A model generated the notes under the pieces. That model was not told the origin of the DNA, ran no database searches, and worked only from the letters and a program-made list of their open reading frames with translations. From Eledone cirrhosa (Eukaryota), in contig OZ024750.1 of assembly GCA_964016885.1 (NCBI GenBank), positions 14,818,001-14,882,000 of the forward strand: 64,000 nucleotides of DNA, given 5' to 3'. The position numbers and the translations under genes were made by a program. Of this stretch, positions 35,521 through 60,200 are shown in pieces; the stretch's first letter is position 1; each line of letters begins with the position of its first letter.

Positions 35521-36106
35521 TTTTACATATCAAAGTTAGATTGGCGGAAATAATTGGAATTGAAAAGTGATATATTCAGGCATTAAATTGAAAAATTTAA
35601 ACCATCCTAAAAACTAAAAGGTCCAGCTGATGGCACAAATAAATTGTTACAGCCGTCGCTGGTGGCTATTTCCACCACTGCAGGAAGGCACGGGGCAATT
35701 GCTCCCCCCCCCCCATGGAATCCAGCCCTGTACACACACACACACACACACACACACACACACACATATATATATATATATCATTTCATTTATTGATTTA
35801 TTGATAATTTATCTGAGTGTCCCGAATCTTCCATATCGAACTTATCGGTTATTTGGTTGATTGTAGACATATTCTACGTGTGACGGTATTTAACGATAGT
35901 TATAGCTCTAATTTATTTGAATTATAGAGCCCTCTGCCGCTCATCTCGAATTTTGTTTATCGTGAACTCGTGCGCCGATTTTTCGATACTCGATTATTCT
36001 ACTATATATATATATATGCAAAGTTTTATTTAAATTGTTGGGTTACAACGAGTAAATATTTATAACTGATATAAAAGCACTCAACAAATATTTGGAGTAT
36101 ATTTAC

Positions 36107-36449
36107 GATATTAAATAAATGGAAATTATATTTATAAAACCATATTTATTTCATTATATATATTTCAGGGATATCATATTAAAAATATGTTATGCCTTCT
36201 TCAGACAAAATACAATATAAACAGTCTTATAAATAGATAGATTCGACATACCTTTCAACTTCGACTTGCATTTGAAAAGTTGATTTGGTAGTCTGAAAAA
36301 GTTGATTTATAAGACTGTTTATATTGTATTTTGTCTGAAGAAGGCATAACATATTTTTAATATGATATCCCTGAATATGATATCCCTGAAATATATATAA
36401 TGAAATAAATATGGTTTTATAAATATAATTTCCATTTATTTAATATCGT
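36107..36449. repeat. Fold-back inverted repeat
   Basis: About 36107-36234 mirrors about 36305-36449 across a spacer of about 70 nt, and abuts (TA)n. Confidence 0.9.
36153..36208 (-). ncRNA. Hammerhead-like motif in a fold-back element
   Basis: CTGAAGA, a 14-bp imperfect stem II (AGGCATAACATATT/AATATGATATCCCT), then GAAA-TATATA-TA. A mirror copy lies on + at about 36331-36400. Confidence 0.45.
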
Positions 36450-57200: not shown

Positions 57201-60200
57201 TAACTTTACCTTTCATCATTACGGGGTCGATAAAATAAAGTACCAGTAATGTACTGGATAATTGCTGGCCTTGTGCCAAAAGTAGAAACAATTATTATTT
57301 TAAATGTATTATTTGCCCATTCTTTTAGGCAAAACGTGCTTGTGAACACTTTTCAATAACTACGAAGCGTGTAAAGGGTACCACCGAAGGAAAATATTAC
57401 GGAGAGATAATAGTAAAAAAGCCTCTCGATTATGAAGGTGTACCGTCATATGTTATGACATTATTGGCTAAAGTAAGTTATAAAGGTTTCTTTTTTTTAC
57501 ATCAAATAAATAAATTTCTTTCATTTTATATAGAAAATTTTGCCTATATTTTAGCTTAATATTTGTAAGGATATTTAACAGGTGGATGTTGCCGAGAAAG
57601 GTTTGCTGGTACATCGAAGTTGTTGCACTATGTCTATGACTAAAACAGAAAAAAAAAAACTTCGTAATGGCTTTGTTTACCTAGGCGTAAATGAGAGCAT
57701 TCCGAATTTACATATCTAATAATTTCAGTGACACTATGAATCTTGTCTCTAAAAATTTGAATAAAGTTTCATTTTGAAAGGTACTCACCAGAAAGGAAAC
57801 ACGTGATATGATTATCCTAAACGGCAAACACTAAGGGTCAAAATTGGAAGACTAAGGGTCAAAAGCTAACATTGGTTTTTATAGATTATGTATATAAAAA
57901 GGGCAGTGGATTGGCAGAATTGGTAGAGCATCGATCAACATGCTTTGTAGCATAGAGTTACGGTCCTTTACGTTCTGAATTCAAATTCCGCCGAGGTTAA
58001 CTTTACCTTTCATCCTTACGGGGTCGATAAAATAAAGTACCAGTAATGTACTGGTTGATTTAATTGACTTTCGACTCCCTCAAAATTGCTGGCATTGTGC
58101 TAGAAATCATAAAGTATATAAATAATCATAAATTATATATATAATCATAAATTATATATATAATCATAAATTATATATATAATCATAAATTATATATATA
58201 AAATAAAAAAATGAAATCAGGGAAATAACTGAAGTGGGTTAATAACATGTAATTATAGAAATAAGTTAAGTGGCGATGTAATAAATGGCATAGGCCCCTA
58301 CCCCCAATGACAATTATTTGAAACTTCTTCCTTGGAGAAAGAAAATAAAAATATAGCGGTAATTTTAGCTGTCAAAGAAAAGGAACATAATTTGAAGAAG
58401 TTAATATTTTATTTCATGAAATTAATGAAACACATGCTTAGGCAAAATGTGATGTTTGTTAGTAAGGTGACAGCCACGAATAGGTTTCCTTGATCAAGCA
58501 GGCTCAGGTTCGACAGATTCACTGACGATGTTGAACAAGACTGAAATATGTCTGTAGTTACCTCGCTTGCCTGCTAACAAAGATAACATTTTTCCTTAAG
58601 CATGTAAATTGATTTTGTCAAACTAATTTCTTGAAATTATCTCTATTCTTTTTTTTTTTGGGAGAGTCGGTAACAATTAACGCCAAGCTTTTAATTTCGT
58701 TCTCTAACTAGGGGAAATTTCAATTAATTCAGAAATGGCTTATTCCATTCAGTACCTTACGGCGTAACTTGATTTTCAAAGACTAACACTAATATTTTAA
58801 GTCTTTCATATAGATATACAAATATGATTTCTTTTTCCTAGACTGACAAAGATAAATTTAACAGTATGGATTCTGTTGGAGAGCTTTACCTATCATATAA
58901 TTATTATTTTTTTTGGTACATCATTAATCTGAAATAGGAAAGTTGTATTTTATATTTGATTAGTAAATAAAGTTCAATGACCTAAGTAATGCGTTATTAA
59001 TCTAACAGTTACCATCTTGTCCATCAAAAACAAAAATATAAGGGAACACTTTTGAAAATAAATATTTAGATTTTTTTTAGTCCACAGTATGTTCTTGATG
59101 GCAGTTTTTCAAAGCATTCACCATAAATATGAGAACCTTGTTTTATATTACAACCTAATATTTGACATCCGTTGGTATTCTTAATTGCTTTTATTTGTGC
59201 AGGATAACGGTTCTCCGCTTCTCAGTGCTCGAGTGAACGTACTAATTGATCTTAACGATGAACAGGATAATCCACCATTTTTTGTACTGGGTCCATATAC
59301 TTTTTTTGTTAAAGAACATATTTCGAATGTAAGTAATGATATTACTTTTTTTCTTAGTACATGCATTCATGGCTGCTTACAAATATATTTATTTACGGAG
59401 TTTCTCTATAAATAGAACTCAAATTTTACATAGTTTTTTTTTGCAGTCAAACTTTCACCAAATTAAACCCTATTGTGTTAATAATAAGGGACGAGAGACG
59501 ATACATTGAATATATATAGTGACAGATGTAAAATGTATGAAAATAAAAACGGGATGTTACGACTGGAATGGCTTTCATCCTAGGTCTGCTCGATTAGAGA
59601 TGAATTGTGGTTAAACACCACCAACACTATCACCGACGTCGCTGCCACCACCATCAACACCGACAACAACAACATCAACAACAACAACAACAAGCAACAA
59701 TAAAAATATCAATAGCCACTACAACTGAGCAGAAAAGACGTTGAAACGTCGATGAATCTTGGAAATTTATTGTTCCAAACGAAGTATAAAGAAATCAATA
59801 AGGAAATATTTAAAAAGTCCTTAGTAAAATACGAGGATCGACTGAAAAGTTCATAGGCTGACCAAGATACTCTCATGGAATGTGACCAAATGAGATTTAT
59901 CTTTCAACGTAGTCCACACACTTCTTCCATCGGTGTTGCAGTGCTTGGATCCCATTGTTGAAGAAGCTTTCATCCTATTGGTAAAAAAAGTCATCAACAG
60001 CAGATATAACGATTATATTCATATCAAGTTAATAGTTTTTCGAACCACAGCCTTCCTGTAAGCTCATATACCCATATTTAGTTTTCATAGAACAAAACAG
60101 ATTAGTGACGCTAGACACATGTAACTTTAATGGAATAACATGAGGATATATTCTTCTCAGCAATGTAATCCGGGAAAATATAGAATTACATTTATTATCT

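Follow-up and report, generated by a model that had tools for sequence, protein, structure and literature searches.

The stretch of octopus DNA analysed here (64,000 nucleotides, hereafter the window) holds a dense patch of hairpins, most of which are short repeats lodged in TA runs (Table 1). Eight structures (D, A2, E, G, H, B2, A3 and F) sit between exons of a probable cadherin gene. Of six exons, just one matched the Pfam cadherin domain, and weakly so (E 0.034), and a homologue search with one cadherin exon returned no relative. The first-pass annotation had claimed at least ten hairpins or palindromes, headed as a family and lying mostly beside microsatellites. Masked self-BLAST of the window recovered 10 of the 11 listed hairpins; the remaining one, 58432-58604, was absent from this comparison and has only imperfect outer arms of ~33 nt. 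Arms extend up to ~270 nt and are 95-100% complementary in one set of hairpins, those of D, E and A2 being more diverged.

Table 1 Features of the hairpin-rich region, in window coordinates.
Feature	Position	Strand	Description
Family C, short copy	35782..36002	+	(TA)n-flanked dispersed repeat; one end common with the copy at 52680
Family B, copy 1 (B1)	36018..36448	- (sense of tail-bearing arm)	(TA)n, short inverted arm, apex, long arm, 89-nt tail, (TA)n
Complete type I hammerhead motif, B1 long arm	36147..36212	-	Core CTGAAGA at 36204, GAAA, palindromic stem III
Hammerhead motif, B1 short arm	36327..36407	+	Core at 36335; predicted cut after 36399
Structure S	36850..37317	.	202-nt inverted duplication of a decayed repeat plus flank; no hammerhead
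Family A, copy 1 (A1)	43845..44075	-	64-nt tail; half motif in both arms
A1 half motifs	43949-43927 and 44036-44058	- and +	GAAAC, palindromic stem III, GTC
Element I	44123..44345	-	Not a hairpin; ~95 nt from (TA)n shared with A1
Structure K	44680..44805	.	Hairpin, mostly simple repeats; no motif
Element D	49718..49985	+	Hairpin; GAAAC GATC GTC in both arms; 7-bp stem II
Family C, long copy	52680..53231	-	Between (TA)n runs; 93-aa open frame
Family A, copy 2 (A2)	53263..53418	-	Arm end and tail end as in A1; apex differs; 79-nt tail
A2 half motif	53382-53360	-	
Element E	53570..53727	+	Hairpin with near-complete hammerhead; 60 nt beyond arm to (TA)n
Element G	53893..54491	.	~270-nt arms enclosing an inner (TA)n
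Element H	54583..54852	+	100-nt arms; ambiguous
Family B, copy 2 (B2)	54917..55080	+	Arm end and tail end as in B1; 88-nt tail
Family A, copy 3 (A3)	55113..55178	+	Lone arm with same inner end site; no tail, no hairpin
Structure F	58430..58606	+	Weak outer arms; decayed hammerhead-like motif; no (TA)n nearby

With arm ends set by eye, a (TA)n run of at least 8 nt lies flush with an arm end in 6 of the 11 hairpins; 5000 random placements gave 1.0 on average and never more than 6. Two further hairpins have (TA)n at 14 and 21 nt from an arm, and no (TA)n flanks 44686-44803 or 58432-58604 at distances up to 200 nt. In five of the 11, one arm is flush on (TA)n and the other extends 58-89 nt to a second (TA)n, a geometry that reached a maximum of 3 in 5000 random placements. 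Tails across the elements measure 58-109 nt. An inverted 5'-truncated copy adjoins the 5' end in A1, A2, B1, B2, D and G, and no direct (tandem) pLTR arrangement was found in the window. Independent copies of families A and B have both outer ends in common and differ in the apex. The structures fall into several unrelated repeat families and do not form one family.

Many of the hairpins had been said to carry a whole or half hammerhead motif. A descriptor of the type I hammerhead, its limits fixed after the motifs had been seen, gave 4 matches at 3 loci (36204/36335, 53635 and 44249), all within 35790-58610, and zero in the remaining 41 kb of the window (shuffle mean 0.10, maximum 2, 40 shuffles). 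Two of the 11 hairpins contain a whole motif by this descriptor: 36107-36449, with an exact core in both arms, and 53575-53660, with one core mismatch and the 3' half beyond the arm. Inspection by eye added decayed whole motifs, failing the descriptor, in 49725-49870 and 58432-58604, and a 3' half only at 43908, 53341, 53951 (one mismatch) and 54586 (outside the arms). By the same inspection 36850-37317, 44686-44803 and 54916-54992 have no hammerhead motif. The half motif of GAAAC, a 3-bp stem and UH occurs in 4 of 11 hairpins from 3 families (mean 0.15, maximum 3 in 500 shuffles); a looser version without the C matches 83 times in the window and is uninformative.

A plain sequence pattern fails to detect these motifs: CTGANGA..GAAAC matched twice, both times outside the region, which is no better than chance (19 of 100 shuffles had 2 or more). 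Against Rfam, 99 matches with E up to 1 included no hammerhead family; the models obtained were hairpins of miRNA type that scored under their cut-offs. The CUGANGA/GAAA/UH core with helices I and II is exact in B and has one mismatch in E and I, and A, D and G hold the motif in part only. Helix III can form a self-duplex in B, D, H, I and A (palindromic, dimer-capable) and is not palindromic in E. A bulged base after A9 together with a G10.1-C11.1 pair is found in I; B and E have A-U in place of the usual G-C closing stem II. Folding energies of six motifs were no better than those of shuffles (z 0.50 to -1.67).

In family B, the long-arm hammerhead of copy 1 has a stem I of 8 bp and a predicted cut after 36155; stems I and II are present in its minimum-energy fold, at a stability no higher than that of shuffles (z 0.37). 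The short-arm hammerhead carries a 15-nt duplication in loop II, and the apex between the arms displays microhomology jumps. Copy 2, 93% identical to copy 1 over 137 nt, is truncated downstream of the hammerhead. One of the two copies has its apex ~100 nt upstream of the hammerhead core; that of the other falls downstream of the cut, by 9-18 nt.

The sequencing-read test covered family B (plus C) only, over a 671-base stretch, to which 4597 contigs of run X1, 38,993 X9 reads (raw reads from a different sample and study) and 94 contigs of another organism (X5) were matched; the X6 pieces, only 15, short and AT-rich, were left out. RAD-seq reads concentrate on few loci. Family B is a dispersed repeat. 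At 36098, 5177 X9 reads break into a TA run; the breaks in X1 contigs fall at 36107 (24) and 36447 (22). Read depth declines away from one end, one read joint connects the arm end via TA to the tail end (42 reads, 4 starts), and the apex of copy 1 is spanned by no contig or read among the matched pieces. In the listed 40 of the 152 variant rows a single core position appears, N7 (36339, with A, T or G), and changes at 36386, 36395 and 36402 preserve pairing in stems II, III and I. Loose contig ends show other loop II sequences on an unchanged stem II base (52 and 41 contigs; agreement 0.61-0.65). Both arms of copy 1 have in common a rare variant at 36126/36428, at which ~95% or more of other copies differ; this points to a single template used for both arms or to later homogenisation between them. 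Searches of metagenomes with families A and B were negative.

In family A, four arms at three loci stop at the same base before TA, and the tail end is common to two of them. No hammerhead 5' core was found at its loci, including the ~35 nt upstream of the half motif in A1. The lone arm A3 starts with ~8 nt matching the family B tail end. Element I, which the first-pass annotation had missed, holds a minimal hammerhead motif with a 4-bp stem I, a one-mismatch core at 44249, GAAAC GTT and a predicted cut after 44222; a bulged A is present and its G-C-closed stem II has 4 bp. Element E has the core CCGATGA at 53635 and CTGATGA in the opposite arm, a long stem II, GAAAC at 53678 and a predicted cut after 53690. 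In D, a decayed core with two mismatches at 49798 (-) fails the whole-motif descriptor, and (TA)n follows 109 nt past the right arm. Element G is flush on (TA)n at its right end, has a 58-nt tail on the left and an apex half motif with one mismatch at 54223-54235 (+). The half motif of H, GAAAC GATC GTA at 54791, lies in a 67-nt stretch up to (TA)n. Structure F, with a core at 58522 and GAAA at 58543, fails the descriptor.

S and K represent a different sort of inverted duplication, likewise at microsatellites. S has (TA)n at one end and (GA)n at its apex, and in its arms lies a decayed version of the dispersed repeat that is common across the window (70% over 140 nt relative to 45354-45491), which we take to be SINE-like. 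A CTGAGG..GAAA string in S was considered as a hammerhead and rejected, as it has no stem II and sits at the head of this repeat. Family C, of which the short copy has neither hairpin nor hammerhead, contributes a 93-aa open frame in the long copy, with no Pfam match and a best Atlas score of 0.80.

Taken together, we consider it likely, with a probability of about three in four, that A, B, D, E and probably G, plus the unfolded A3 and I, are 5'-truncated 3' ends of several Penelope-like element (PLE) families inserted in (TA)n. This assignment is called likely and not firm because no PLE protein was found: the 30 of 85 open frames scanned against Pfam yielded no PLE domains. Truncated stubs would not be expected to hold an RT or GIY-YIG frame. 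A PLE GIY-YIG remnant reported earlier at 19715-19910 found no backing, with no Pfam match in 3 frames and no relative in two homologue searches (among 22 candidates and in 1.84 billion representatives); it may be a very decayed remnant. Of the earlier proposal that several ribozyme-bearing, non-autonomous retroelement families insert in (TA)n and fold back at or near the ribozyme, it holds that several unrelated motif-bearing repeat families lie in (TA)n and resemble PLE insertions, but at least 36850-37317 and 44686-44803 are unrelated to hammerheads. The label non-autonomous is unsupported, since 5'-truncated copies of autonomous elements would give the same picture. As to the site of fold-back, what stays constant within a family is the pair of outer ends at (TA)n, and the apex varies between copies; the family B contig joints point weakly, and with confounding, toward the ribozyme.

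The insertions resemble those of EN+ PLEs (Penelope/Poseidon, Neptune, Nematis, Naiad) as described in the available part of Craig et al. 2021 (PMC8557442), namely in 5' truncation, an inverted truncated copy at the 5' end, a one-sided tail and a bias to microsatellites including (TA)n. They differ in their tails, which are 30-40 nt there and 58-109 nt here, and in that neither an ORF nor a partial tandem was seen in the window. As Naiads are without canonical hammerheads, Neptune or another of the canonical clades is the better match for the hammerhead families. De novo PLE insertions have a median of 128 bp and lie in intronic microsatellites, according to the section available of PMC9977147, and recently active Penelope families are noted for Octopus vulgaris in an excerpt of PMC13282606. 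The motifs, which here are sequence motifs with predicted cuts, share with the metazoan PLE type I hammerheads of Cervera and de la Pena 2014 (PMC4209133, in the portion at hand) the core boxes, a short or palindromic helix III, a minimal, dimer-type build, occurrence often singly or on opposite strands 100-700 bp apart, and many dissimilar families within one genome; element I also has their bulged base and G-C pair closing stem II. B and E depart from that description in the A-U closure and long helix II arms, and B in its 8-bp helix I. Our literature search found nothing on cephalopod hammerheads; supplementary hammerhead lists or repeat libraries may already include these octopus families.

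A parallel for the fixed ends is Poseidon of Anolis carolinensis. According to the accessible part of Frangieh et al. 2024 (PMC11167929), its protein both cleaves and extends the two strands, initiating at two sites between which the tail lies. Two fixed 3' ends bounding a tail, an AT-rich target and a hammerhead within ~150 nt of the ends are alike in both systems; inverted arms are not addressed in that part of the report, and no start codon could be placed near the hammerhead of the octopus elements. In the proposed mechanism, a PLE GIY-YIG endonuclease would cut both strands of a (TA)n run, and reverse transcription would be primed from both cut ends at two family-specific RNA start sites, of which the outer would yield the tail and the inner would lie 60-90 nt upstream. 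The two cDNAs would end early and join head to head through microhomology, which would give a variable apex and two fixed ends. Each insertion would then be a tail-bearing copy plus an inverted tail-less copy of the hammerhead-bearing end. In a close variant, a single cDNA would fold back and copy itself up to the inner site. With the hammerhead 40-150 nt from the 3' end, short insertions would often contain it or break near it.

A more specific version, which we hold to be doubtful, is that the family B fold-back stubs record ribozyme cleavage in vivo, with self-cleaved RNA as the template. Reverse transcription would start at the fixed inner site, run 48 nt to the cleaved 5' end and jump, so that short B copies would end where the hammerhead cuts. 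Of the 10 listed X1 contig joints, 8 have an arm that stops -2 to +6 nt from the predicted cut. For Poseidon, PMC11167929 looked at RNA reads and found none with an end at the hammerhead cut.

Apart from retroelements, breaks or stalled forks at self-complementary (TA)n could lead to template switching that duplicates neighbouring sequence inverted, hammerheads appearing only because ribozyme-bearing repeats already adjoin (TA)n. Such inverted duplications have been published (PMC3907307, PMC11724301). S, flush on (TA)n, duplicates a SINE-like repeat plus flank, K is simple repeat, apexes show microhomology, and the rare variant common to both B1 arms would fit. S without a hammerhead, and G with arms enclosing (TA)n and further sequence, indicate that DNA-level fold-back probably occurs here too. 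As a general explanation it is nonetheless unlikely, because it fails to account for independent copies ending at the same inner base 60-90 nt before the element end, for the 5177 reads breaking into TA at that base, and for the lone family A arm ending there without a hairpin.

Non-autonomous non-LTR retrozymes, short tandem type I hammerhead units spreading via circular RNA, would match the short, non-coding nature of the elements, their type I motifs with palindromic stem III and the joint of arm end, TA and tail end, and have been argued to derive from PLE ends (10.64898/2026.07.22.740005, as far as the available text goes). We regard this origin as very improbable: the retrozymes described in the part of Cervera and de la Pena 2020 (PMC7229834) available to us are tandem repeats of 150-450 bp expressed as circular RNA, whereas no hammerhead-bearing tandem unit exists in the window and the octopus copies are single, inverted and 5'-truncated to differing lengths. 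Insertion of MITE/foldback-type miniature inverted-repeat DNA transposons at TA would give short, non-coding inverted arms with TA at the ends, and MITEs and Tc1-mariner are annotated in O. vulgaris (PMC13282606, excerpt); this is hardly credible given a non-terminal inverted repeat with a 58-89 nt non-repeated tail on one side, a variable apex, read depth declining from one end and a constrained hammerhead core. Assembly or library chimeras (fold-back reads), which the unspanned B1 apex and the difficulty of assembling AT-rich palindromes might suggest, can practically be dismissed, as arms differ by substitutions and indels, the same ends recur at independent loci, and similar joints and arm ends are found in other runs, including the X9 raw reads.

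The PLE assignment would explain the dense hairpin patch as retroelement debris and add octopod examples to an already described class of PLE insertion. The hairpins between the cadherin exons would form double-stranded RNA in the pre-mRNA, and octopuses are animals known for heavy A-to-I editing. The formation of inverted PLE ends has so far been unexplained; a double-priming model, which can be tested, accommodates outer ends that are fixed in two places and an apex that is free. The role of the PLE hammerhead is called unclear in the available part of PMC8557442, and cleavage was unnecessary in vitro in that of PMC11167929. Tallying where numerous short insertions break, relative to the predicted cut, could prove useful here. 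If the cleavage reading were true, the same two-start machinery would have captured host sequence to give hairpins of the S and G type, and octopus genomes would provide thousands of natural events testing what the PLE hammerhead does.

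Masked self-BLAST of the window recovered ten of the eleven structures behind the first-pass annotation's claim of at least ten hairpins or palindromes in 35790-58610; the outer arms of the remaining one, structure F (58432-58604), are short and imperfect. The long hairpin arms are 95-100% complementary, and the substitutions and indels between them argue against fresh chimeras. Judged by similarity, the hairpins are several families, not one. Two further small inverted repeats (1748-1959 and 49269-49305), absent from the original list, gave no hammerhead descriptor match. An exon of 42 aa (11378-11503) marks the window as octopod DNA: its identity to the La homolog is 86% in Octopus vulgaris and 79% in Argonauta hians.

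Features of the window
Feature	Position	Strand	Remarks
Family A	43845-44075; 53263-53418; 55113-55178	-; -; +	third is a lone arm; grouped by similarity
Family B	36018-36448; 54917-55080	-; +	grouped by similarity
Singletons D, E, G, H, F, S, K	49718-49985; 53570-53727; 53893-54491; 54583-54852; 58430-58606; 36850-37317; 44680-44805		no family partner; grouped by similarity
Family C	35782-36002; 52680-53231	+; -	(TA)n-flanked dispersed repeat, one fixed end; good coverage in runs X1, X9, X5; no hammerhead or hairpin
Element I	44123-44345	-	minimal hammerhead, one core mismatch (44249); unfolded insertion; (TA)n run common with family A copy 1
La/SSB homolog	about 5900-12100
Mitochondrial pyruvate carrier exon	22611-22970	-
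Probable cadherin exons	about 48200-62900	+	weak Pfam support
Mariner-type HTH remnant	15725-15997
Endonuclease-RT remnant	31558-31962
Tandem array, 78-nt unit	37700-38370
Tandem array, 20/40-nt unit	40640-41740
Tandem array, 32-nt unit	42220-43550		unit from within dispersed repeat also near 18680, 39600, 46380
Tandem array, 27-nt unit	62900-63870

Six of the eleven hairpins lie flush on a (TA)n run (random placement: mean 1.0, maximum 6 in 5000), and in five the opposite arm extends through a tail of 58-89 unduplicated bases to a second (TA)n (mean 0.2, maximum 3 in 5000). Elements D, E and H come near this geometry (14/109, 122/60 and 21/67 nt, respectively). Four arms from three family A loci stop at one common base, with the tail end common to two loci, and both ends of family B are common to both loci. 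The apex, in contrast, is variable: one family B copy has it ~100 nt upstream of the core, the other 9-18 nt downstream of the predicted self-cleavage site, and the apices of family A copies are more than 25 nt apart. The fixed points are therefore the outer ends, not the ribozyme; the proposed insertion in (TA)n is supported, whereas folding back at or near the ribozyme is not supported as stated.

Insertions of different families are chained via common (TA)n runs (35766-36850 and 52615-55241). Two families meet in a compound junction at 55081-55127, where ~8 nt that match the tail end of family B in inverted orientation lie across the (TA)n and run into the lone arm of family A. The first 34 kb of the window contain only 10 (TA)n runs of at least 8 nt and no hammerhead descriptor match.

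An exact-core descriptor (stems of at least 4, 2 and 2 bp) matched only both arms of family B (36018-36448) in the 64 kb; among 30 shuffles, 5 had a single weak match, none as strong. A looser minimal-hammerhead descriptor, which tolerates one core mismatch and whose limits were chosen after the motifs had been seen, gave four matches at three loci: two in family B, one in element E (53635) and one in element I (44249). All fall inside 35790-58610, and the remaining 41 kb has none (40 shuffles averaged 0.10 matches in the region and 0.68 in the window, with maxima of 2 and 3, respectively). The half motif GAAAC-stem-UH occurs in 4 of 11 hairpins, from three families (500 shuffles: mean 0.15, maximum 3). 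Element D has it in both arms, and fails as a single motif because its decayed core and the matching helix I strand sit in opposite arms. The 5' core was never seen at family A loci, and S, K and family B copy 2 show no hammerhead motif. Whole or half motifs, first noted in many of the hairpins, are confirmed in part; element I had been overlooked. This element is close to the published minimal consensus (PMC4209133), with a 4-bp helix I, a bulged base, a G-C pair and no loop 3. Helix II closed by an A-U pair is distinctive of family B and element E. Rfam yielded no matching hammerhead model for these motifs, and folding energies do not set them apart. Possibly another stub is the 150-nt stretch at 36560-36712, which is bounded by two long (TA)n runs and has CTGACGA at 36633 but no matching GAAA.

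Genome-wide statements rest on a read test over 35782-36452, which holds family C and family B copy 1. On it were placed 4597 X1 contigs, 38,993 raw RAD-seq X9 reads (same species label, other study), 94 X5 contigs (another organism) and 15 short AT-rich X6 pieces, which were set aside. Depth, which when summed is not a copy number, peaks in arm and tail and declines upstream, as for 5'-truncated copies. Breaks into a TA run at 36098 in 5177 X9 reads, which may derive from few loci, and breaks of X1 contigs at 36107 and 36447 indicate that the genome has the family B inner end at other places too. Among 40 of 152 variant rows, the sole varying core position of family B is N7 and three helix changes retain pairing; in loose ends the base of stem II is unchanged while the loop II sequence differs. 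A constrained hammerhead would be expected to show this pattern. The copy 1 apex is spanned by no contig or read of the runs placed here; both arms carry a variant rare elsewhere (36126/36428), which points to one template or to homogenisation. Family C might represent the end of a retroelement, Naiad-like or of another type.

According to Craig et al. (PMC8557442), insertions of Penelope-like elements (PLEs) are truncated at the 5' end, where an inverted truncated copy often adjoins them, have a 30-40 bp tail at one end and show a microsatellite bias, and in canonical clades the terminal repeats contain hammerheads; tails are longer here. A PLE protein cuts and extends both strands of AT-rich DNA and starts at two RNA sites bounding the tail, according to Frangieh et al. 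(PMC11167929). If the two ends of a single cut each primed synthesis, one at each start site, and both extensions stopped early and then joined through microhomology, exactly the observed structures would, we infer, result. The elements resemble PLE ends in how they work and are likely PLE members; no clade is named, since no PLE protein was linked to any family. The PLE GIY-YIG remnant annotated at 19715-19910 had no counterpart in Pfam, a word-indexed search or 1.84 billion representatives, and the 30 scanned of 85 open frames held no PLE domain.

The fold-back stubs might record in vivo ribozyme cleavage, self-cleaved RNA serving as template for short family B copies. In eight of the ten X1 left-right arm joints listed, of at least ten in all, one arm stops -2 to +6 nt from the predicted cut, in a set where short contigs favour short hairpins and alignments may be shortened by a frequent mismatch at 36402; the TATATATA of helix III by itself forms a fold-back microhomology. 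These joints lend weak support to breakpoints at the motif, as first suggested, but the window arms do not follow: those of A1, B1 and D pass through the predicted cut and those of A2 and G begin 6-7 nt upstream of it, which is not what a cleaved template would give. We consider this route improbable. S and G could stem from DNA-level fold-back or capture in trans. S and K were rejected as ribozyme elements, neither having a motif; S is an inverted duplication of a repeat that we take to be SINE-like. Retrozymes and MITEs are unlikely, as within the window the elements fail the tandem-repeat and the terminal-repeat test, respectively.

In Chlamydomonas, the median length of new PLE insertions is 128 bp and they lie in intronic microsatellites (PMC9977147), Penelope is among the expanded coleoid repeats (PMC8967140), and 31 PLE families have been active recently in O. 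vulgaris, ribozymes going unmentioned in the portion of PMC13282606 consulted. Of the papers themselves that searches on octopus and cephalopod hammerheads listed, none describes these families. The kind of element is already known; distinctive in the window are the density of families with common (TA)n runs and the breakpoint lead.
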